DNA of 42,999 bases. It comes from a virus. Lineage: Duplodnaviria; Heunggongvirae; Uroviricota; Caudoviricetes. The translations under genes were made by a program, and so were the position numbers. Position 1 is the stretch's first letter. Every line of letters starts with the position of its first letter. The notes below the pieces were generated by a model that saw nothing but the letters and a program-made list of their open reading frames with translations, was not told the DNA's origin and did not search any database. Shown piece by piece: positions 32,469 to 42,999 of the stretch. Location: positions 1-42,999 of the IMG/VR virus record IMGVR_UViG_2703718845_000002; one strand, given 5' to 3'.

Positions 32469-33487
32469 CAGAAAAGTTCTCCTGAATCAGTGCCGCCAGC
32501 CCAGCGCTGGAGGGTTTCAAGGTTGCGAGCCGTTGTGGCTGAGTACTGGCCCTGAGAAATTGCCATTGCGTGAGCATCGCCGGCCATATCACGAAGTTTT
32601 TCGACCTGAGCAGCGTCTCGCAGGAGCGTCTCAATGCCGTCATAGCGCTTTCTGGAAGGGTTCTTTCCCATAAGCCACGGATCGCCTTTTGCGCCAGTTA
32701 TGGCCCGGCACAGCTCGTCCACAGTGAAGCCTTCCGCCAGTCGCGCCTTGATGCGCTTGCGGCGTTTGTCGTCGAGTTTTGCTGACGGGTGGTCATGTTC
32801 TTTCTGCCAGTGGGTGAAAACCAGTCTTACAGGGTCGGTCTTCGGCTGCTCCTGAATAACCGGATCGGGATCTGGTTTTCCACACTCGTCCCCAGCGGGG
32901 ACTATAGGGGTTAGATCTGTTTTTATATTTGTCTTTGAAAGAATGTCTTTGGTGTTCCCTGTTTCCGGGGATACCTTTCCCTGTTTTTGGGGATGGTTAT
33001 CCCTGTTTTCAGGGATGGTTGGCGCGGCTATTCTGCTATCCCTAATTTCAGGGATGGTGATAACCTGCGTTTCAACTTCAGCGACCGGAAAACTCACCGG
33101 ACATTTAGGGCATTTCGGTTTGGTATAAGCCCATGCATCCAGACAGGTGTTGATCCCGATGTATCGTGTTTGCCCAATCCTGCGAACCTTGATGATGTTG
33201 CGATAAGCAAGGCTGAGAACCGCTTCAGAAACGTGCTTAACCGCCAGCATGGTTTTGTCAGCGATGAGGCTGTTAGCGATCCGGTCTTCTTTTTTCGACC
33301 AGCCATACGTCAGGCGAACAATTGCATTCAGCACGCGAAATTCGCGCCCCGAAAGCTCCACTACACACAAGGCGTCCTGAATCTGGTTAGCAAGGCGCAG
33401 ATAGCCATTGTCCAGATCAGCCATGCGACTCTCCTGCTGTACCTTTTCCGGCACAGGGAAATTGATTACTTCGGCAGTATTTGCCAT
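32468..33487 (-). CDS. Replication initiator protein (lambda O-like), contains ori iterons
   Basis: 339 aa; N-terminal REFRVLNAIVRLTYGW resembles the replisome-organiser domain; four DNA iterons lie in the middle of the gene as in lambda O. Confidence 0.75.
   Translation of the reverse strand: MANTAEVINFPVPEKVQQESRMADLDNGYLRLANQIQDALCVVELSGREFRVLNAIVRLTYGWSKKEDRIANSLIADKTMLAVKHVSEAVLSLAYRNIIKVRRIGQTRYIGINTCLDAWAYTKPKCPKCPVSFPVAEVETQVITIPEIRDSRIAAPTIPENRDNHPQKQGKVSPETGNTKDILSKTNIKTDLTPIVPAGDECGKPDPDPVIQEQPKTDPVRLVFTHWQKEHDHPSAKLDDKRRKRIKARLAEGFTVDELCRAITGAKGDPWLMGKNPSRKRYDGIETLLRDAAQVEKLRDMAGDAHAMAISQGQYSATTARNLETLQRWAGGTDSGELF
32951..33062. repeat. Replication origin iterons (four ~19-bp repeats) with adjacent AT-rich tract
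   Basis: Four repeats read directly (TCCCTGTTTCCGGGGATA, TCCCTGTTTTTGGGGATGG, ATCCCTGTTTTCAGGGATGG, ATCCCTAATTTCAGGGATGG) at about 32956, 32978, 33001, 33039; AT-rich tract 32916..32950. Confidence 0.7.
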
Positions 33488-33572
33488 AATTACTCCTGTG
33501 AATTTGTTCAGTTAATTCGCGTAGAAAGCCGTTAGTGTTCCCGCACTGCGGCTTTCGCCCTTCTGTTTCCAC

Positions 33573-33794
33573 TCATGCTTCAAAATCACCTTTCTCTCCC
33601 GGCCTGTTAGAAATCAGGATGGCCAGCAGTAGCGACATGTTCGGCAGCAGACTTTCCCGCCAGCGACTCACCGTCGACTTATTCACTCCGGCCACTTTGG
33701 CGATATTCGTGGTTCCCAGTTCAGCTATCTGGCTGTGTAACCAGCTTTCTATCCTGCGAGCCTCCACTTTGTTGCGTGTCGTTGAACTCTCCAT
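33573..33794 (-). CDS. cII: CII transcriptional activator
   Basis: RIESWLHSQIAELGTTNIAKVAGVNKSTVSRWRESLLPNMSLLLAIL closely parallels lambda CII; ATG at 33794 with AGAGGAAG SD. Confidence 0.85.
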   Translation of the reverse strand: MESSTTRNKVEARRIESWLHSQIAELGTTNIAKVAGVNKSTVSRWRESLLPNMSLLLAILISNRPGEKGDFEA

Positions 33795-33873
33795 TTGTGA
33801 TACTTCCTCTGGTGGTGTTTGGAATGGCTGAATTACTCAGTCAGAACCCGCTGACTGCTCAATTCAGCTTTGT

Positions 33874-34065
33874 TTAATCAGGATTTCTGTTATGTGGGAA
33901 AGGCTTGATCTCCTCAGCCTTAATTTTTCCATCAGGCAGGGTGTTAACGAAAATCTTCCGCCCTACCCGGATAGCTTTACTAATTGCGGTCTGGTGAACG
34001 CCGATGGCATCAGCAGCTCTTGCCTGTCCAACTTCGTCAACGTATTCAGCTAAAGAAATTTTCAT
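33874..34065 (-). CDS. cro: Cro repressor
   Basis: 63 aa from ATG at 34065 (AGGAG SD): MKISLAEYVDEVGQARAADAIGVHQTAISKAIRVGRKIFV...AEEIKPFP parallels lambda Cro; the track ORF extends upstream through the operator region. Confidence 0.85.
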   Translation of the reverse strand: MKISLAEYVDEVGQARAADAIGVHQTAISKAIRVGRKIFVNTLPDGKIKAEEIKPFPHNRNPD

Positions 34066-34169
34066 GTGGTTAGCTCCTATCAACTCATGAGCAAACAATA
34101 CCACAAGTATTAAACATTGCAATACCGCTAGTATTTTTAAAATAAGAACATTGGTATTACTATTTGAAA
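34066..34169. promoter_or_regulatory. OR region: operators and divergent pR / pRM promoters
   Basis: Two 15-bp palindromic operators AATACCACAAGTATT (34097..34111) and AATACCGCTAGTATT (34121..34135), 24 bp centre to centre, between divergent cro and cI; a third degenerate site may lie near 34145..34160. Confidence 0.7.
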
Positions 34170-34880
34170 ATGGAAAAGAAAAAGACACTGACATCGGCTC
34201 AGATCGCTGACGCAGAAAGGCTGAAAGCCCTCTATGAAGCCAAGAAAAAAGAGCTTGGGATAACACAGCAATCAATAGCTGACATGCTAGACATATCTCA
34301 GGGGGGCGTTGGGCATTACTTGAATGGCAGGAATGCCCTTAATGCTGCCGTGGCTGCTGTTTTTGCCAGAGCCCTCCAGGTGGATGTCTCTGATTTTAGC
34401 CCCAGCCTTGCGAAAGAAATATCTGCAATGAGTGCTTCCGCTACATCGAATGCCAAGTATGCAGGCCAGTACACCCCAGGCATTAAATACCCTGTATTAA
34501 GCAAGATTCAGGCTGGGCATTGGTCGGAAGCGTGCGAGCCGTATGCACTTAAAGATATCGATCTATGGCTAGAATCAGACGCTCACATCCAGGGGGATGC
34601 GTTCTGGTTGTTGGTCGAGGGGGAATCCATGACTGCCCCGGTCGGGCTCAGCATACCAGAGGGTACCTACGTTTTGTTTGATACCGGCCGAGAGCCAGTA
34701 AATGGCAGCCTTGTGATCGCAAAGCTATCCGAATCAAACGAAGCGACATTCAAAAAGCTGATTATTGATGGGGGCCAGAAGTACCTGAAGGGCTTAAACC
34801 CTCAATGGCCATTGGTTCCCATCAATGGGAATTGCCGGATCATTGGTGTGGCTGTAGAAACTAAGTTGAGACTTGTGTGA
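34170..34880 (+). CDS. cI: CI repressor (HTH plus LexA/S24-like autocleavage domain)
   Basis: MEKKKTLTSAQIADAERLKALYEAKKKELGITQ and C-terminal GESMTAP ... FKKLIIDGGQKYLKGLNPQWP parallel lambda CI; track start 34164 is TTG, first ATG at 34170. Confidence 0.9.
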   Translation: MEKKKTLTSAQIADAERLKALYEAKKKELGITQQSIADMLDISQGGVGHYLNGRNALNAAVAAVFARALQVDVSDFSPSLAKEISAMSASATSNAKYAGQYTPGIKYPVLSKIQAGHWSEACEPYALKDIDLWLESDAHIQGDAFWLLVEGESMTAPVGLSIPEGTYVLFDTGREPVNGSLVIAKLSESNEATFKKLIIDGGQKYLKGLNPQWPLVPINGNCRIIGVAVETKLRLV

Positions 34881-34981
34881 TCAGCAGCATGCCGCGGACG
34901 TACAGGAAGCATGGGTAGTCGGTAGTGGACTGACAAGGTGTTTGGGTGATGAGAAGATAGCAATAACTTAGAGGCTTAAAT

Positions 34982-35746
34982 GTGATCAGAATAGGAAGGT
35001 TACTACCTGGCGGCATTGCAATTGACGAAGGGCAACATCACCCGATAAAGGGCGTTGCTCTTTTGATAAAAGAAAATAGCGAACCAGAAGAGATTGTTGT
35101 TTTTGCAAAAGAAATTTCTTCCAGGAGCATTTCTATAGAAATAACCTGCGCAGCCTTGGGAAGAGCTCTATCCCTGCCTATACCCGAGCCAGTACTACTG
35201 TTTGACAGCTCAAACAAAGCATTTTTTGGTAGTGTTGATGCTACCTATCCGAGTTTCATGAAGTATGTTTCTAACTCTTCAGATCAGGCCGTTTCTGATG
35301 CTTTGGCATCATGGCCGTTATTGAAAAAAGCTAGCTATTTTGATGAGTGGATTGCGATGGATGACCGTCACAACGGAAATTTGCTTTTCAATGGTGATGG
35401 TTTCTTCCTGATAGACCATGAATCGGCAATTCCCCAAGGTCTTGCCCCTGACCTTTTCGGGATAGATTATTACTCCAATCAATTGCTGCAGGTAGCAACT
35501 TACATACTCGATAGAAGTAATGATATAGCCGTTCAGATGATGGCAAATGAGGCGAGAGCTTGGACCATGTCTTGCAAGAGTAACACCCTAACGCTATTAG
35601 ATGGAGAGATATCCGAAACAGTTCAAGGTAAAGAGAAAAATCAAATAATGTCTTTCCTTTCATCTAGAATTGAGTTACTAGGAGACATTCTTTATGATCA
35701 AATCAAGCCCCAACAAACACAGATGATATACGATGCTAAATCTTGA
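34982..35746 (+). CDS. Kinase-like protein (HipA/CtkA-like or APH-like catalytic motifs), first gene of rex-position cargo operon
   Basis: GTG start with AGAGG SD 9 nt upstream, no in-frame ATG nearby; 254 aa; AT-rich; motifs VVFAKEI, MDDRHNGNLLF (D-x-H-x-x-N) and FFLIDHES. Confidence 0.6.
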   Translation: MIRIGRLLPGGIAIDEGQHHPIKGVALLIKENSEPEEIVVFAKEISSRSISIEITCAALGRALSLPIPEPVLLFDSSNKAFFGSVDATYPSFMKYVSNSSDQAVSDALASWPLLKKASYFDEWIAMDDRHNGNLLFNGDGFFLIDHESAIPQGLAPDLFGIDYYSNQLLQVATYILDRSNDIAVQMMANEARAWTMSCKSNTLTLLDGEISETVQGKEKNQIMSFLSSRIELLGDILYDQIKPQQTQMIYDAKS

Positions 35747-36614
35747 TCAGCTTCTTAAGTCAGCTCCTGCTATGCCTGCAACATCAGGGCGCTGGGCATC
35801 TGTTTATCTTGAACCAATGATCGGCTCAGGAGAGCGGCTCACGGTAGCAGTTGCCACGATAACATCATCTGGTGAAATTTTAGTTAAGCCGGCAATCAGA
35901 AAAGAAGTTATAGAAGCTATGTATGGCTTCAAAGCACCAGCATTTATCAATGTGGTTGATCTGATTTTGTCGAGTTTGAAGTTGCATCTGGCTGCTAAGG
36001 GGGATTTCGTATCATGGCATCCTCCAGTTACAGGCGTCACTATAAGCGCCGTAAGGAATGCTGCGTCATCAAGCCCTGTTGGCATACTCCGCCAAGCGGT
36101 ATCATTGTCATCGAGTTTGTCATCACTCCTTGAGGCTGAAGAAGATTCCGATGGGTTGCCAGCTAAGCAATCAAGAACTAAAGACAGGTGGCCAATTCAA
36201 ATCTTTGATGCGGTTATCAGCGCTGACGGACGCAGGGATATTTTTTTCAATAGAAGCTTCACCTTTAGTGATGGACACAGACCGGCTAAAATTTTCTATC
36301 TAAGCGATCATGCAGCTATCAACACCGGAAAACTGTTACCCCACAACTTGAATGAGCAGGTTAAGGATGGAAAAGCAAAAATATCTGACTTATCAATGAT
36401 AAAAAGGCAAGGCGATATTTTTCCAAGAGAAACTCATCAAATGATTATCTACAAACCGGAAGATGATAGCCCTGCATACAATGATAGGCACATAGCATCA
36501 ATAAATAGTGCGTACCTTTCTTTACAGGACTTGGCTAACACCTACGATGTATCAATCACTTCTGTAAGCACTGCCGAGCATGCAGCAAGGTTAATATTGC
36601 AAACTGCAGCATAA
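35733..36614 (+). CDS. Unknown partner protein of rex-position operon (tentatively DUF3037-like N-terminus)
   Basis: ATG at 35733 overlaps the 3' end of the kinase-like gene by 14 nt; 293 aa; AT-rich; N-terminal YLEPMIGSGERLTVAVA; no recognisable catalytic motif. Confidence 0.6.
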   Translation: MLNLDQLLKSAPAMPATSGRWASVYLEPMIGSGERLTVAVATITSSGEILVKPAIRKEVIEAMYGFKAPAFINVVDLILSSLKLHLAAKGDFVSWHPPVTGVTISAVRNAASSSPVGILRQAVSLSSSLSSLLEAEEDSDGLPAKQSRTKDRWPIQIFDAVISADGRRDIFFNRSFTFSDGHRPAKIFYLSDHAAINTGKLLPHNLNEQVKDGKAKISDLSMIKRQGDIFPRETHQMIIYKPEDDSPAYNDRHIASINSAYLSLQDLANTYDVSITSVSTAEHAARLILQTAA

Positions 36615-36621
36615 CTTTTGA

Positions 36622-36645
36622 TCCGGCCACCGCGCCGGGTTTTTA
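36622..36645 (+). terminator. Rho-independent terminator ending the cI/cargo operon
   Basis: Plus-strand CCGGC-CACCGC-GCCGG followed by T5, 8 nt after the stop of the second cargo gene. Confidence 0.55.
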
Positions 36646-36650
36646 CTGCC

Positions 36651-36854
36651 CTACTCTTCCCTCAGCATCAGCACGTCCAGCGCCAACTCCACAGCCAGAT
36701 CGACCTGGTCTTCCTGCCACAACACCTGAATCATCTCTATCAGCGCCTCTCTTGAGGGCTCGCGCTTCTCAACCAGCAGTTGCATAACCACTATCCCGAT
36801 GACCTGCGCTATCTGCGGGTGCATTTCTGCGAAAAACTCATCCTCATTTGACAT
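36651..36854 (-). CDS. Small acidic protein, convergent to the cargo operon
   Basis: 67 aa, ATG at 36854 with AAAGGGG SD; pI strongly acidic (ending LMLREE); GC content like the phage backbone; promoter would lie in the OL region. Confidence 0.45.
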   Translation of the reverse strand: MSNEDEFFAEMHPQIAQVIGIVVMQLLVEKREPSREALIEMIQVLWQEDQVDLAVELALDVLMLREE

Positions 36855-36924
36855 GCCAACACCCCTTTATGATGTTTTTTTGAGCATAACAGCACTTTTT
36901 ACAAAAATAAATTAACTTTAAAAT

Positions 36925-36996
36925 CATACCTTTAGTATTTTTATTAAACATCATAATACTGGCGGTATTGATATAAAATAATACCGGGAGTATTAT
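36925..36996 (+). promoter_or_regulatory. OL region: three operators and pL promoter
   Basis: Operators CATACCTTTAGTATT (36925..36939), AATACTGGCGGTATT (36955..36969), AATACCGGGAGTATT (36980..36994), same consensus as OR; sigma70-like pL with -35 TTGATA (36968..36973), 17-bp spacer, -10 TATTAT (36991..36996). Confidence 0.7.
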
Positions 36997-37075
36997 GATC
37001 TCATCCAAACAACACCGGCAACGCCGGGGTGAAGTCAAAACGTCCCGTTAGCCGCGATAAGGCAAAGGTGAAGAG

Positions 37076-37192
37076 ATGATCCGCGAAGAAGATAAAACCG
37101 AGTGGTTTAAGTTTCTGGCACACGCATTCGCCATCGTCGTATGCGTACTGATAGCAAGTGCGTTCTGCCTGATGCCTGGTGGTTCAGCATGA
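37076..37192 (+). CDS. Tiny membrane peptide (38 aa), first gene after pL; not in supplied track
   Basis: ATG at 37076 with AAGGTGAAGAG SD; MIREEDKTEWFKFLAHAFAIVVCVLIASAFCLMPGGSA has one predicted TM helix; stop overlaps the next ATG. Confidence 0.45.
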   Translation: MIREEDKTEWFKFLAHAFAIVVCVLIASAFCLMPGGSA

Positions 37193-37299
37193 GCAGAAAC
37201 GGCATTCGTTCACTGATTTACTGCCTGCTGATCTGCGGAGTTATCTGGACAGCGTTGATTATCAAAATTCTGCACGTTACGGGGGTGTTCAATGGCTAA
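37189..37299 (+). CDS. Tiny membrane peptide (36 aa), translationally coupled; not in supplied track
   Basis: ATG at 37189 overlapping the previous stop (ATGA); MSRNGIRSLIYCLLICGVIWTALIIKILHVTGVFNG has one TM helix; stop overlaps the start of the next ORF. Confidence 0.4.
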   Translation: MSRNGIRSLIYCLLICGVIWTALIIKILHVTGVFNG

Positions 37300-37486
37300 C
37301 TCAATTCCTAACAGCGGACGCGCCGTGATGATGCGTAACGCTAAAACTGGCGCCACATGGAAGGTTTCACGTGACTACCTGAAAGAAACCTTCTGGTTCG
37401 AGCCTCAAGGCAACCTGCGCCACATTCGCAAAGCATTTGAGGCACGCGACCTGCTGCCAAACCTGGTACCAGCTGGGACGCATTAA
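37292..37486 (+). CDS. Hypothetical small protein in early-left operon
   Basis: 64 aa, ATG at 37292; not Arg-rich, so not an obvious N-type antiterminator. Confidence 0.45.
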   Translation: MANSIPNSGRAVMMRNAKTGATWKVSRDYLKETFWFEPQGNLRHIRKAFEARDLLPNLVPAGTH

Positions 37487-37573
37487 CCGCGCATATCAGC
37501 GCACGAATTTAACTGAGCTATCAGGCAGCCAATACGGTGCCGGGATTCTTACAACCAAATTTCAGGGGAAACC

Positions 37574-38545
37574 ATGAGCGAAATAATGGATTTAGTCGTC
37601 ATCGAGAAAAAGAACGCGATGGCGGTTTTCACCAATAACGACCAACTCGATCCGCTTATCGAAGCGATCGAAAAAGAGGCTCGCAGTCTGGTGCCGGACG
37701 TGACCACCAAAAAAGGCCGCGATGCTATCGCATCCATGGCTCACAAGGTCGCGCGCTCTAAAACCTACATCGACAACGCAGGTAAAGCCCTGGTCGCTGA
37801 GCTGAAGGCGCTGCCAAAGCAGATTGATGAAAGCCGCCGCGTTGTCCGTGAGCGTCTCGATGCACTGAAAGATGAAGTGCGTCGCCCGTTGACCGAATGG
37901 GAGGCTGAGCAGGAACGCATTAAGGCCGAAGAAGCCATGAACGCCCTTCACGTCGAAGCACTGGCCATGAATGAAGAGTTCGATCGGCAGCTGGCAGCTC
38001 GGATTGAGTCTGACCACGAAATGGCCATGCTGATGAATGACGCTTTCGACCGAGAGCAGGCAGATAAAGCAGCTGAGGCTGAGCGCCAGCGCATTGCCCA
38101 TGAAGAAGAAATTAAGCGAATGGCAGCCGCCGCAGCAGCCCGAGAAGTTGAGCAGCGCGCACAGCGTGAACGTGAAGAAGCGGCGCATCGCGAAGCTGTG
38201 TTGAAAGCACAAGCTGAGCAGGCAGAGCGAGATCGCATTGCAGCCGAGAAGAAAGCTGAGGCTGACAAGCAGGCCGCTATCGAAGCGGAGCGCCGCAAAG
38301 CTCAGGAAGAAGCCGATCGCATCCGCCGCGAGGCAGAGCAACGCGAACAGGCCCGCCTGGCTGAGGAGAAACGTAAAGCCGATGAGCAGGCTCGCCGCGA
38401 AGCCGACGTTAAGCACCGCAAGGCTGTAGGCACTGAAATCGTCAAAGCTCTTCTGGCCAATACCAGCCTTACTCGGGATCAGGCTATCGAGGTGCTTACA
38501 GCGGTTAAAGACGGCCGCATTCCCCATACCGGTATCAGTTACTGA
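37574..38545 (+). CDS. Coiled-coil protein with E/R/A/K-rich repetitive central region
   Basis: 323 aa, ATG at 37574 with GGGGAA SD; central 150 aa is highly charged low-complexity helix (AEAERQRIAHEEEIKRMAAAAAAREVEQRAQREREEA...); in the kil/cIII position upstream of gam. Confidence 0.6.
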   Translation: MSEIMDLVVIEKKNAMAVFTNNDQLDPLIEAIEKEARSLVPDVTTKKGRDAIASMAHKVARSKTYIDNAGKALVAELKALPKQIDESRRVVRERLDALKDEVRRPLTEWEAEQERIKAEEAMNALHVEALAMNEEFDRQLAARIESDHEMAMLMNDAFDREQADKAAEAERQRIAHEEEIKRMAAAAAAREVEQRAQREREEAAHREAVLKAQAEQAERDRIAAEKKAEADKQAAIEAERRKAQEEADRIRREAEQREQARLAEEKRKADEQARREADVKHRKAVGTEIVKALLANTSLTRDQAIEVLTAVKDGRIPHTGISY

Positions 38546-38552
38546 GGTGCTT

Positions 38553-38837
38553 ATGAACGCATACCGCGCATACGACGCTATCGAAGAAAGGAAATGGGCT
38601 GAACAGTCGCTAACCGAAGAGAAGCAAAAGTGGATTGACGATCGGGCGCAGGAAATTATCGACGCCCTGCCGAAAGAGCCGTCAGGCCTGTTCCGCTTCT
38701 CTGTGCCGATGGACAAAAGCCCATACGAAGGCCTCCGCAGCGATGCAGCTGGCGAGGCATATAACGATCTCATCTCGGCAGTAGCTTATGCCCAGGCGGA
38801 ATATGACTGGGACCACCGCACCGGCTGCCCGTTTTAA
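38553..38837 (+). CDS. Gam-like host nuclease inhibitor
   Basis: Track start 38547 is GTG; ATG at 38553 with GAGGTG SD gives MNAYRAYDAIEERKW..., resembling lambda GamS MNAYYIQDRLEAQSW...; immediately upstream of bet. Confidence 0.55.
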   Translation: MNAYRAYDAIEERKWAEQSLTEEKQKWIDDRAQEIIDALPKEPSGLFRFSVPMDKSPYEGLRSDAAGEAYNDLISAVAYAQAEYDWDHRTGCPF

Positions 38838-38852
38838 CTTTGGGGAATAACA

Positions 38853-39698
38853 ATGGCTAACGAACTTGTGATTACAGCCGGCTCTCTTGCTGAGAGAGGC
38901 ATTGACGGCGCTACCTGGAGCGCCCTCAAAAACAGTATTTACCCTGGCGCCAAGGATGAGTCGGTGATGATGGCACTGGACTACTGCCGGGCCAGAAACC
39001 TTGATCCGCTTCTTAAGCCCGTTCATCTGGTGCCAATGAGCGTTAAGGACTCGAAGTCGGGAAAAAGCGAGTGGCGCGATGTGGTTATGCCTGGCATCGG
39101 GCTTTATCGGATTCAGGCCGATCGCTCCGGTTCTTACGCTGGCGCAAAAGAACCAGAGTTCGGCCCGGACGTCACTCTGACGCTTACCGGTATTGAAGTG
39201 ACCGTGCCTCAATGGTGCAAGTACACGGTCAGCAAGCGCATGCCCAGCGGGGAGATCGTCGAATTCAGCGCGAAAGAATACTGGGTTGAGAACTACGCAA
39301 CCGCCGGCCGCGACACTACCGCGCCAAACGCAATGTGGAAAAAGCGCCCCTATGGCCAGCTGGCGAAGTGTGCCGAGGCTCAGGCTCTGCGTAAGGCGTG
39401 GCCTGAAATTGGCCAGCAGCCCACTGCCGAAGAGATGGAAGGTAAAACACTGGAAGTTGATGCGCGTGACGTAACGCCGCGAACCACGACAGAGGCGCTC
39501 CCCCTGGTGGCCAGTGAGGAAACGTTGCAGGCAATTACCGACCTCCTGACGTCCCTGAATAAGGACTGGGAGCAGGACTTCCTGCCTCTGTGCAGCAACA
39601 TCTTCAAGCGTGACATTTTCCAGGCATCACAACTCACCGAAGAAGAAGCGCAGAAAGGCTTTAGCTTCCTCCAGAAAAAAGCGCAGGTGGCAGCATGA
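38853..39698 (+). CDS. bet: Bet / RecT-family single-strand annealing protein
   Basis: C-terminus [40 protein letters not shown] closely parallels lambda Bet; ATGA overlap with exo. Confidence 0.85.
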
Positions 39699-40375
39699 CA
39701 CCAGAAATTATCCTCGAACGAACTGGCATTGACGTTACCCGCGTTGAACAGGGAGATGAATCCTGGCACCGCTTACGCCTGGGCGTGATCACCGCCTCGG
39801 AAGTCCATAACGTCATTTCGAAGCCGAGATCAGGCACCAAGTGGACTGACATGAAAATGTCTTATTTCCACACGCTGCTCGCAGAGGTATGCACCGGCGC
39901 GGCGCCGGAAGTTAACGCCAAGGCGCTGGCCTGGGGAAAACAGTATGAGGCCGACGCTCGAACCCTGTTTGAGTTCACCACCGACGTGAAGGTAACGGAG
40001 TCACCGATCCTTTTCCGTGACGAAGGTATGCGCACCGCCTGCTCACCAGACGGCCTGTGCAGTGATGGCCGCGGCCTTGAGCTGAAATGCCCTTTCACCT
40101 CTCGCGACTTCATGAAGTTCCGGCTTGGCGGCTTCGAGGCTATCAAATCCGCCTACATGGCCCAGGTGCAATTCAGCATGTGGGTAACCAGGAAGGACGC
40201 CTGGTATTTCGCGAATTATGACCCTCGCATGAAGCGAGAAGGCATTCATCACGTGGTTGTTGAGCGCGACGACAAATACATGTCCGACTTCAACGAAATG
40301 GTGCCGGAGTTCATCGAGAAGATGGACGAATCGCTGTCGGAGATCGGTTTCACCTTCGGGGAACAGTGGAAATGA
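39695..40375 (+). CDS. exo: Lambda exonuclease (Exo)
   Basis: [40 protein letters not shown]...GFTFGEQWK is near-identical in pattern to lambda Exo along its whole length. Confidence 0.9.
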
Positions 40376-40530
40376 AAACTAACCACGACGGAATCACCGT
40401 TGGAAGTATCACTCTTCCCTATTCCATCAATCGCCGGGGATGGATCGCCCCAAGCGGCGACGTTATCAAAAATCCATTAAAGGCTCAGCGGCTGGCTGAG
40501 CTGATGAACAGTAAGAAGGTGATGGCATGA
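40372..40530 (+). CDS. Small hypothetical protein (52 aa), not in supplied track
   Basis: ATG at 40372 overlapping the exo stop (ATGA) and TGA overlapping the methyltransferase ATG; [52 protein letters not shown]. Confidence 0.4.
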
Positions 40531-41186
40531 GCGAAAAATACTCTCTGATTTATGCCGATCCGCCATGGGCTTATGAGAACACAATCAGCAACGGCGCCGC
40601 AGTGGACCACTACTCGACGATGCGACTCATCGACCTGAAGCGTCTGCCAGTGTGGGAACTGGCTGCCGAAAACGCGGTGCTTGCGATGTGGTACACCGGC
40701 ACCCACAACCAGGAGGCGATCGAGCTGGCCGAGGCCTGGGGCTTTACGGTGCGCACGATGAAGGGCTTCACCTGGGTGAAGTTGAATCAGTTGGCTGAGC
40801 TGCGCATTACCAAGGCTCTGGCAGATGGAGATGTGACCGACTTTTACGACTTCCTCGACCTGTTGAATGCCGAGACGCGCATGAACGGTGGCAACCATAC
40901 CCGCGCCAATTCTGAAGACGTGCTGATCGCTACCCGCGGCGCCGGGCTGGAACGTAAGCACGCCGGCATTAAGCAGGTGGTCTACAGCCCGCTCGGCGCA
41001 CACAGCGAAAAACCGTGGGAAGTTCGCCACCGCCTAGAACTGCTCTACGGCGACGTGCCGCGGATTGAGCTGTTCAGTCGCAGCGCAGCGCCAGGCTGGA
41101 GCCACTGGGGCAACCAGTGCGCCACCGCTTCCGTTGAGCTGATCCCTGGCTGCGCCATCGACGTTGTGAAGGCGGAGGCAGCATGA
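40527..41186 (+). CDS. MT-A70 family N6-adenine DNA methyltransferase
   Basis: N-terminal LIYADPPWAY contains the DPPW catalytic motif; 219 aa. Confidence 0.8.
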   Translation: MSEKYSLIYADPPWAYENTISNGAAVDHYSTMRLIDLKRLPVWELAAENAVLAMWYTGTHNQEAIELAEAWGFTVRTMKGFTWVKLNQLAELRITKALADGDVTDFYDFLDLLNAETRMNGGNHTRANSEDVLIATRGAGLERKHAGIKQVVYSPLGAHSEKPWEVRHRLELLYGDVPRIELFSRSAAPGWSHWGNQCATASVELIPGCAIDVVKAEAA

Positions 41187-42352
41187 GCGCGGCAGCGTAC
41201 TACAACGAGATCGACCCATTCGCGGCGCAGTGGCTGCGTAACCTCATAGCCGCCGGGCATATCGCCCCGGGCGAAGTTGACGAACGGAGTATTGAAGATG
41301 TCACACCTGACGACCTCAGAGGATTTACCCAGTGCCACTTTTTCTCCGGTATCGGCGTCTGGTCCCATTCCCTCCGTCTCGCCGGATGGCCAGATGATCG
41401 CCCGGTCTGGACTGGCTCCTGCCCGTGCCAGCCTTTCAGCGCGGCAGGCAAAGGAGATGGGTTTGCTGACGAGCGGCACCTTTGGCCCCACTTCTTCCAT
41501 CTCATCAGCGAGCGCAGACCTCAGCATGTCTTTGGCGAACAGGTTGCAAGCGGTAACGCAAACACATGGTTCGACCTTGTACAAGCTGACCTGGAAGGAC
41601 TGGGATACGCCTTCGGGCTTGTGCCGTTTACGTCAGCGGGCATCGGTGCGCCGCACATCAGAGAGCGGGCCTACTGGGTGGCCAACGCCGACAGCGTCAT
41701 CAGTGACCGGCGCGGGAACATCCGGGCGTCAGGGCGGGATGAATATTCAAACAGCGGCGATGATGTCCGGCTGGCCGACTCCAACCACGATCGACAACAA
41801 CCAGGTCAGGGGGCTGGGTGCCGCTGCCAATGCGCCGAACAGGGGATCGACATTGGGAGGGGCGGCCAGAATGGCGGGCTGGGTAACGCCAACGTCGCGC
41901 GACTGGAAAGACTCGGCGGGAATGACGGCGCAGCGGGACGGGAAAGAGCGACTGGACCAGCTGCCGCGCCAGGCGTTCATGACGGGATGGCCAACACCGA
42001 CAACGAGCAACACTCGATCGCCATCAGTGGATGCGGCCATGAACATGTATCGACAGGACGGCAGCAAGACCCAGCAGCGTCTGCAGGACTTCGCGGGGAT
42101 TACCGGACCCTTGAGGTTAACGGTTTTTGGCGAGATGCGGACTGGCTCTTATGTCGAGATGGCAAATGGCGTCCAGTTGAACCCGGCACATTCCCGCTGG
42201 TTGATGGGGCTGCCGCACGCCTGGCACGAGTCGAGCCCGGGGTGGCAAGAGTGGCAAGCAGCAACCGCGTCTGCCGCCTGAAGGGCTACGGCAACGCCAT
42301 AAACGCCCAGGCAGCTGCGGCTTTCATTCGCGCTTATATGGGGGTCGCATGA
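41183..42352 (+). CDS. DNA cytosine-5 methyltransferase, with apparent reading-frame discontinuity in the target-recognition region
   Basis: Frame of 41183 carries motif I (FFSGIG), IV (SCPCQPFS), VI-like (FGEQV), VIII (HIRERAYWVA) and motif X-like GYGNAINAQAAAAFIRAYM, with ATGA coupling to the next gene; the middle of the gene shows conserved repeats only in the other open frame (41277..42281). Confidence 0.55.
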   Translation: MSAAAYYNEIDPFAAQWLRNLIAAGHIAPGEVDERSIEDVTPDDLRGFTQCHFFSGIGVWSHSLRLAGWPDDRPVWTGSCPCQPFSAAGKGDGFADERHLWPHFFHLISERRPQHVFGEQVASGNANTWFDLVQADLEGLGYAFGLVPFTSAGIGAPHIRERAYWVANADSVISDRRGNIRASGRDEYSNSGDDVRLADSNHDRQQPGQGAGCRCQCAEQGIDIGRGGQNGGLGNANVARLERLGGNDGAAGRERATGPAAAPGVHDGMANTDNEQHSIAISGCGHEHVSTGRQQDPAASAGLRGDYRTLEVNGFWRDADWLLCRDGKWRPVEPGTFPLVDGAAARLARVEPGVARVASSNRVCRLKGYGNAINAQAAAAFIRAYMGVA

Positions 42353-42567
42353 CGCCAGAAGAAAAGAAATATGCGCTCAGAAGCATCGCGCGCAGGGCTA
42401 ACGATGAGGTTAAGGCAAAACGGCGGTCATCTCCCGCTTTAAGTTGCGACGAGATATCACGACCGATCCTCAACGGATGCATGCCGCTGATAAGGCAGCT
42501 TGGGTTAACGCCAAGTCATCTCTATGTGGAGATCGGTATTTTGAACGGAAAGATAAAGGAGCGCTGA
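42349..42567 (+). CDS. Hypothetical protein
   Basis: 72 aa, ATG at 42349 overlapping the methyltransferase stop. Confidence 0.5.
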   Translation: MTPEEKKYALRSIARRANDEVKAKRRSSPALSCDEISRPILNGCMPLIRQLGLTPSHLYVEIGILNGKIKER

Positions 42568-42568
42568 C

Positions 42569-42802
42569 ATGCCAGAAATCATCGATCAGGCCAACGAGCT
42601 GGCAGAGCGCCGGCTGGAAATGACCATCCAGAACATGCGCATCAACCATGCGGCAGTCTCGGCTACTCACTGCCGCGACTGCGGGGAAGAGATACCCGAG
42701 CGGCGCCGGGAACTTGTGGCGGGATGCCAGCGCTGCGCTGACTGTCAGGAAGAGCTTGAAGAACGTGGTAAGCATTTGGCTGTAACGAGAGGTGGAAGAT
42801 GA
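42569..42802 (+). CDS. TraR/DksA-family C4 zinc-finger protein
   Basis: 77 aa with CRDCGEEIPERRR ... CQRCADCQE (four Cys in C4 spacing); AAAGGAG SD. Confidence 0.7.
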   Translation: MPEIIDQANELAERRLEMTIQNMRINHAAVSATHCRDCGEEIPERRRELVAGCQRCADCQEELEERGKHLAVTRGGR

Positions 42803-42999
42803 AACATGAGATGCAACCAGATAGCCTTGTTGATCTGAAATTCATCATGGCGGATACTGGCTTTGGAAAAACCTTCATTTACGACCGGATTAAGTCCGGC
42901 GATCTCCCCAAAGCCAAACTCATCCACGGCAGAGCAAGGTGGTTATATAGTGACCACTGCAAATTCAGAGAAAAGCTCCTGTCCCGCTCCGATGGGTAA
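42799..42999 (+). CDS. AlpA-family DNA-binding protein / putative excisionase
   Basis: 66 aa; LKFIMADTGFGKTFIYDRIKSGDLPKAKLIHGRARWLYSDHCKF matches the AlpA/Xis HTH pattern; stop at the window end, integrase expected downstream. Confidence 0.65.
   Translation: MKHEMQPDSLVDLKFIMADTGFGKTFIYDRIKSGDLPKAKLIHGRARWLYSDHCKFREKLLSRSDG

Follow-up and report, generated by a model that had tools for sequence, protein, structure and literature searches.

TisB, DinQ, Hok, SidA and SPO1 gp56 are proteins of about 30 to 80 aa with one transmembrane helix, which are made only after DNA damage or repressor loss and act at the inner membrane. TisB, DinQ and Hok are type I toxins induced by the SOS response. The other two, SidA of Caulobacter and gp56 of the Bacillus phage SPO1, are small membrane-anchored division inhibitors. 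In phage lambda, the cIII gene lies directly upstream of kil and overlaps it. CIII, like SpoVM of Bacillus, is a small helical, membrane-associated inhibitor of FtsH, and Kobiler et al. expected CIII-like functions carried by other sequences to exist (PMC1838920).

The window analyzed here, a stretch of 42,999 nucleotides, is a lambda-like prophage of the Klebsiella type (Table 1). The 1-kb region around the two genes described below, P1 and P2, matches 26 phage records, all from Klebsiella and at 80–97% identity, and among 5,426 complete E. coli genomes it is matched in 64. Clinical Klebsiella isolates very commonly carry prophages of this type. The early-left operon of the window departs from the lambda textbook: without N and without CIII, it opens with two predicted membrane micro-proteins joined to an exchangeable division-inhibitor slot.

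Table 1. Position of the promoter, operators and genes of the early-left region and its surroundings in the window.
Feature	Position	Strand	Remarks
cro and cII		-	
OR	34097-34111, 34121-34135		two AATACnnnnnGTATT operators between cro and cI
cI	34164-34880		HTH and S24 peptidase protein, from domain matches
HipA-like kinase	34982-35746	+	cargo in rexAB position
Kinase partner, 293 aa (phrog_21150)	35733-36614	+	overlaps the HipA-like gene
Terminator			between the cargo pair and pL, followed by the 67-aa ORF
Acidic ORF, 67 aa (phrog_3946, E=1e-38)	36651-36854	-	between the cargo terminator and OL, divergent from pL
Promoter-like sites	36977-36950, 37021-36992	-	overlap OL
OL	36925-36939 (1 mismatch), 36955-36969, 36980-36994	+	three cI operators AATACnnnnnGTATT, within 36925-36994
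pL promoter	36968-36996	+	-35 TTGATA, 17-nt spacer, -10 TATTAT; 10/12 matches, best sigma-70 match of the region
Leader, ~79 nt	36997-37075	+	start of transcription estimated; opens with CATCCAAACAAC, closes with SD AAGGTG (37065-37070)
P1, 38 aa	37076-37192	+	ATG start; single-pass membrane peptide (predicted)
P2, 36 aa	37189-37299	+	single-pass membrane peptide (predicted)
P3, 64 aa (phrog_3722)	37292-37486	+	kil slot by position
Remainder of early-left operon	37574-40375	+	
Coiled-coil protein, 323 aa (phrog_1376)	37574-38545	+	first after P3
GamL	38547-38837	+	
Bet/RecT	38853-39698	+	
Exo	39695-40375	+	

A sequence-only reading of this DNA had placed a strong sigma70-like pL immediately before two tiny coupled ORFs. 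The promoter call holds, both by its match to the sigma-70 consensus and by cI operators identical to those of OR. The three OL operators flank pL and overlap both its hexamers, and the AATACnnnnnGTATT palindrome is present 6 times where 0.76 sites are expected for the window, a number that none of 100 shuffles reached. Since OL carries the same operators as OR, the promoter before P1 and P2 is a true cI-controlled pL/OL. No second promoter-like site was seen on the plus strand between pL and P1, and the two ORFs are, as had been proposed, the first two cistrons after pL, behind a 79-nt leader. As pL is operator-controlled, P1 and P2 should be silent in the lysogen and should be the first products made after derepression. 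A function as exclusion factors in the lysogen is unlikely, because the operators cover the promoter.

The leader is 95–99% identical to that of the window in about half of the loci compared, and 81–84% or about 50% identical in the rest; values of 95–99% are reached even in phages with unrelated operators. In L001-L016 and many IMG/VR loci, the CATCCAAACAAC sequence directly after the -10 hexamer is invariant, even between phages with unrelated operators and immunity regions, and therefore marks a mosaic boundary at the transcription start. The 19 sequence variants of the leader have a mosaic interior and no hairpin common to all. The leader of the window has a hairpin, CCGGC-AAC-GCCGG, that is absent from some variants, and a boxA-like CGCTC is found in some variants only. 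The predicted fold showed no unusual stability (z = +0.47), and an Rfam scan of positions 33000–42999 at E<=1 gave no meaningful match, the single hit being a spurious U3. On these two grounds, a put/nut-like element or a riboswitch in the leader is unsupported.

The coding status of the two ORFs was assessed on 17 annotated phage or E. coli loci, 4 species-representative genomes and 160 IMG/VR viral contigs. In the window, both ORFs are present at 37076–37299 as described in the sequence-only reading, each with a single hydrophobic helix and the second starting on an ATGA overlap with the first. The SD of P1, rated as good there, is AAGGTG and lies 5 nt before the ATG. The ATG of P2 overlaps the TGA of P1, with GGTGG 6 nt upstream; a longer ORF of 52 aa opening at 37141 contains P2, and the only conserved start is that of MS[RK]... 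Among the 146 ATG-initiated ORFs of 30–60 aa found in the six frames of the 43-kb window, two reach a best 17-residue Kyte-Doolittle mean (KD17) of at least 2.3, and these two are P1 (2.83) and P2 (2.67). In the 18 distinct alleles first collected, frame +1 is the sole frame open throughout, for both ORFs. Frame +3 across P2 is open in 16 of the 18, and the reverse-strand ORFs across P1 and P2 are not conserved. The earlier proposal had been made to depend on conservation of the reading frames in related phages, and it withstands this test, as the frames are open in about 170 loci of the Klebsiella group.

P1 consists of the N-terminus MIREEDKTEWFKF, a transmembrane segment at about residues 14–33 and the tail PGGSA. 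It has at least five allele types, 35–38 aa long, with a mutual identity of only 29–45%. All of them retain MIRE[EH][DE]..W..F, followed by a hydrophobic helix and a short tail; identity of the P1 body to that of the window is 54–59%, and its helix is hypervariable. P2 opens with MSRNGIRS, followed by a transmembrane segment at about residues 9–25 and by KILHVTGVFNG. The AlphaFold2 model is one helix spanning residues 3–35 (pLDDT 91). P2 is always 36 aa long, except in two loci where it has 33 aa, and it is 87–99% identical to the window in most loci and 73–78% in the most divergent ones. Residues M1, S2, G5, I6, R7, S8, L9, W20, F34 and G36 are invariant, and the helix of P2 is more conserved than that of P1. 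Between allele types, synonymous differences are near saturation (pS 0.4–0.9) with pN of 0.1–0.5 and dN/dS of about 0.2–0.7; helices with a KD17 of 2.3–2.8 are retained in every allele despite the 29–45% identity. The conserved ends of the peptides, ..CWGG in P1 and ..GVFNG in P2, come from nucleotides that also form the SD and start codon of the following cistron, and C-terminal conservation is thus in part conservation at the nucleotide level.

The ATGA junction between P1 and P2 is present in 17 of 18 loci, and the SDs lie within the preceding cistrons. The remaining locus has an additional ORF of 71 aa between the two genes; as this ORF runs into P2 through an ATGA of its own, the coupling architecture was rebuilt around the insertion. 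This insert (positions 1690–1905 of L011, also present in about 12 IMG/VR loci) matches the C-terminal part of phrog_2201. On the sequence evidence, P1 and P2 are genuine, translationally linked protein-coding genes, and it is highly probable that they are translated into real membrane peptides. Because a short charged N-terminus precedes the hydrophobic stretch, the positive-inside rule predicts an N-in, C-out topology for both.

The sequence-only reading made no mention of a third gene. The TAA of P2 overlaps the ATG of P3 (ATGGCTAA), which is located 8 nt before the end of P2, and this spacing of exactly 8 nt between the third-gene ATG and the P2 end recurs in 174/174 loci (100/100 and 74/74). 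This overlap of the P2 stop and the third-gene start in every locus is a new observation. Three mutually unrelated families alternate in the third slot: phrog_3722, which is the one in the window, a KilR-like family and Lambda_Kil. The KilR-like occupant in relatives matches NF008465 'FtsZ inhibitor' (E=6e-19) and phrog_294 'Kil protein' (E=5e-34), and the Lambda_Kil occupant matches PF06301 with 40.5 bits for a cut-off of 27.6. Two of the three slot families, KilR-like and lambda Kil-like, are known FtsZ inhibitors. Comparison of P3 (phrog_3722) with KilR by hhalign gave no homology, and the AlphaFold2 model of P3 is beta-rich and of low confidence (pLDDT 58.8). From its position, P3 is a candidate third type of Kil. 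Its family is restricted to Klebsiella and has two alleles that are about 70% identical.

P1, P2 and the kil gene thus form a module chained by overlapping stop and start codons. Its members are exchanged: the types of P1, P2 and third gene reassort freely, and no co-variation among their alleles that would suggest a specific partnership was seen. P2 and the kil gene persist where P1 is lost or truncated (L020-L022). Two of these loci, on the chromosome of Klebsiella sp. WOUb02 and on a 276-kb plasmid (L020 and L021), carry P2 and a KilR-like gene without P1, and both, plasmid included, are apparently outside an intact early-left operon. Also, a basic ORF of 53 aa (MTAKKYALECNSEYLRYREKCRNTRRGD...) is present in L012 (positions 1586–1747) and in L010, L013 and L014, where it takes the leader SD; P1, shifted downstream by about 190 nt, is preceded by an SD of its own. 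This 53-aa ORF had no match in Pfam or PHROGs.

The sequence-only reading had also noted that neither ORF was in the ORF track supplied with the DNA. The genes are real, as it implied, but they are not novelties, since GenBank and RefSeq already list both. Klebsiella phage Mulock gp44 (CPT_Mulock_044, QFG06746.1), a 'putative membrane protein', is P1 at 100% identity, and Mulock gp43 (CPT_Mulock_043, QFG06745.1) is P2 at 100% identity. The 'membrane protein' UVD31884.1 of GZ7 belongs to the P1 family, and RefSeq WP_223203116.1 is P2 in E. coli. The two exact sequences occur in NCBI, in 57 and about 1000 contigs. In some database entries, a different start or frame was chosen. As ORFs, P1 and P2 are therefore already known, listed as hypothetical or 'membrane' proteins. 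A search of the literature for the two peptides found no paper, and comparison of P1 and P2, divergent alleles included, with Pfam, PHROGs, NCBIfam, PADLOC and PDB profiles gave nothing meaningful. An exhaustive phmmer comparison of P2 with 1.8 billion representatives gave 16 clusters; 15 are variants from the Klebsiella group or versions with a wrong start, and the weakest is a spurious repeat protein. P2 is carried by 4 of 185,579 species genomes. As judged from these sequence searches, the family is narrow in range.

An N-type antiterminator had been expected at this site, and the absence of any Arg-rich N-like protein nearby had been noted. N is indeed absent, with no lambda N relative by tblastn and no Pfam match suggesting N. 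The expectation itself was lambda-centred, and no intrinsic terminator was predicted on the plus strand between 36900 and 42999, so that, judged from intrinsic terminators, antitermination may not be needed in the visible part of the operon. More generally, neither the window nor about 180 loci gave a relative of lambda N, CIII, Ral or Ea10, by tblastn and with the Pfam families for pL-operon products. The window does encode CII (PF05269; phrog_3638, E=1.5e-48), and because CII is present such a phage would need a CIII-like function. A lambda CIII tblastn search gave 364 phage records, mainly Escherichia, Salmonella and Stx phages. Of these, 40 were listed, and the majority of the 40 have the match over annotated cIII and kil. 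P2 with P1 fills the cIII slot in phages that have cII and no cIII. The module is also found in the phage of locus L025, which has a DicA/YdaS/YdaT-type immunity region and no lambda-type CII.

Several other features of the neighborhood were recorded. The HipA-like kinase downstream of cI matches PF20613 (E=1e-5) and the PADLOC candidate PDC-M66A (E=2e-6), and in relatives the same slot contains RexAB, DUF6932 or ParA-like cargo. With its 293-aa partner, this kinase probably forms a lysogen-expressed defence or abortive-infection pair. Several relatives keep the 67-aa ORF, which is a pseudogene in the E. coli locus L001; it may also be under cI control, as the minus-strand promoter-like sites overlap OL. 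The 323-aa protein is rich in Ala, Glu, Arg and Lys and is labelled 'TolA-like' or 'colicin uptake' elsewhere. Its gene, between the kil slot and gamL, is present in some relatives and missing from others.

We hypothesize that the P1-P2-kil module encodes early membrane-anchored host-takeover peptides with a CIII-like action. The peptides would insert in the inner membrane, where the helices would serve mainly as anchors, because the P1 helix is hypervariable and the N-terminal motifs are invariant. The cytoplasmic juxtamembrane motifs, MIRE..W..F in P1 and MSxxGIRSL in P2, would be exposed to a host protein located at the membrane. P2 with P1 would then do the job of lambda cIII, that is, restrain FtsH so that CII and other unstable early proteins survive, and the P2/kil overlap would make translation of kil depend on that of P2. 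This is our best overall explanation, and it is held tentatively, at somewhat less than an even chance. The more general claim of an early function directed at the host and tied to the kil module, taken separately, has about an even chance, and a broad role in host takeover is plausible. By analogy with CIII, FtsH is the leading candidate for the specific target, which is doubtful when considered as a claim of its own. The same low probability applies to the full proposal that P1 and P2 replace CIII without being homologous to it, as truly membrane-embedded proteins that control FtsH and, through it, CII and the choice between lysis and lysogeny. On that proposal, the hypervariable P1 helix would reflect a diversified interaction with FtsH or phage-phage competition. 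Against our preferred explanation, P1 and P2 have no homology to any characterized protein in the sequence comparisons, and the function given here is a candidate. Against the CIII idea in particular, two true transmembrane helices, as predicted, stand in the place of the single amphipathic one of CIII, and the module occurs in L025 without a lambda-type CII. Also, replacement in a slot of mosaic phages need not imply equal function. The free reassortment of P1, P2 and third-gene types weighs against our explanation as well, and so does the share of the terminal conservation that is owed to the signals of the next cistron.

A target in the divisome or envelope would fit the neighborhood of the module. 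P1 and P2 could be small membrane-anchored inhibitors or helpers that act on ZipA, FtsA, FtsQLB or FtsW/I/N, in the manner of SidA and SPO1 gp56, and so complement the third gene's product, a cytoplasmic inhibitor of FtsZ. Physically and in translation, the linkage to the kil slot is invariant, two of the three slot families are Kil or KilR, and P2 is kept with KilR-like genes when P1 is lost. However, lambda Kil and Rac KilR do without such a peptide in their own phages, the neighbor of kil in lambda being cIII and no P2-like ORF being present upstream of Rac kilR. Moreover, P2 pairs with three unrelated third genes and the alleles reassort freely. We consider this reading rather unlikely in itself, and about equally likely as a role on FtsH; a toxin or a coupling leader is less likely than either. 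As toxins, the peptides would oligomerize and depolarize or permeabilize the inner membrane early in lytic growth, to shut the host down or to block the entry of superinfecting DNA. A role in host killing or exclusion had been suggested in the sequence-only reading, and the invariant linkage to a kil-type slot lends it some indirect support. Their size and hydrophobicity are typical of TisB, DinQ and Hok, and they would be induced only on repressor loss. This possibility appears quite improbable: there is no signature of an antisense RNA or antitoxin (no Rfam match, and no antisense promoter in or after the ORFs), a strong SD heads an essential early operon whose phage would be harmed in its replication by a loss of energy minutes after induction, and conservation is in the cytoplasmic N-terminal motifs, not in the helices.

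The overlaps themselves could also be what is selected. In that case the peptides would be minor products of regulatory leader cistrons, the translation of which supplies the toxic kil gene with ribosomes at a constant ratio and may also carry the mRNA to the membrane. Such a reading agrees with the conserved ATGA and ATGGnTAa/g overlaps, with the location of the SDs of P2 and P3 inside the preceding cistron, and with the hypervariability of the P1 helix, as if any hydrophobic helix sufficed. It has to contend with N-terminal motifs and a P2 residue W20 that are invariant, with codons 5, 6, 8 and 9 that change only synonymously, and with a length (35–38 and 36 aa) and hydrophobicity that are strictly kept and would not be needed for pure coupling; we regard it as improbable to much the same degree as the toxin. 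The most skeptical reading is that P1 and P2 are chance ORFs or mis-called frames, their conservation coming from an RNA element or from the other strand. The ORFs are indeed very short, frame +3 stays open across P2 in most alleles, and other starts or frames are in use in the databases. Nevertheless, this is essentially excluded, as only frame +1 is open in all alleles, the reverse-strand ORFs are not conserved, the protein features outlast a synonymous divergence close to saturation, and no structured RNA was found.

The value of P1 and P2 lies in the P1-P2-kil architecture and in a testable hypothesis of cIII replacement. If control of FtsH or of the divisome were true, the peptides would represent a new class of factors for host takeover by phages, and they could be of use as small tools, or as leads against an essential target in the K. 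pneumoniae membrane. Should their role prove modest, the module is still an example of translationally chained micro-ORFs conserved across mosaic phages, and genes of this kind are missed by family databases such as Pfam, PHROGs and NCBIfam.

Among known systems, two identities find no support. P1 and P2 do not resemble a lambda N-type antiterminator, being hydrophobic, with no N relative by tblastn and no Pfam match. Nor do they have the location of holins, as they lie in the early-left operon beside gam, bet and exo and not in a lysis cassette. With TisB, DinQ, Hok, SidA and SPO1 gp56 they share a small size and a single transmembrane helix, predicted in the case of P1 and P2. Unlike these proteins, they are in tandem and embedded in an operon, with no antisense-RNA control and no homology. 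The small hydrophobic single-helix character is likewise that of the type I toxins Hok, TisB, Ldr and Ibs, but neither an antisense or trans RNA antitoxin nor a promoter of their own was found for P1 and P2, which are transcribed from pL and have a strong SD.

Tiny ORFs opening a repressor-controlled operon with a division inhibitor are also known in the Rac prophage (ydaG/ydaF, upstream of kilR) and in Qin (ydfA/ydfB, upstream of dicB). Their products differ from P1 and P2 in being soluble (KD17 <= 0.72) and belonging to DUF1391 or to unrelated families, and their genes do not overlap that of the inhibitor; with no P2-like ORF before Rac kilR, they were rejected as homologues. Kil of lambda (PF06301) and KilR of Rac (NF008465) are soluble and not homologous to P1 and P2, which did not match either profile. 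It is only the neighbor gene in relatives that does so, and these Kil and KilR homologues start on the stop codon of P2 as part of the same operon module.

Lambda CIII (54 aa, FtsH inhibitor) resembles P1 and P2 as a small helical early product of pL, encoded upstream of kil and overlapping it, and it is membrane-associated (PMC1838920). It differs from them in being amphipathic, soluble or peripheral, and the product of a single gene, whereas P1 and P2 are two genes for predicted transmembrane peptides; no sequence or profile similarity to CIII (PF02061) was detected in either. In Klebsiella phage Mulock, gp44 and gp43 are of the identical families, and they also occupy the identical position, after pL and before a kil-type gene.
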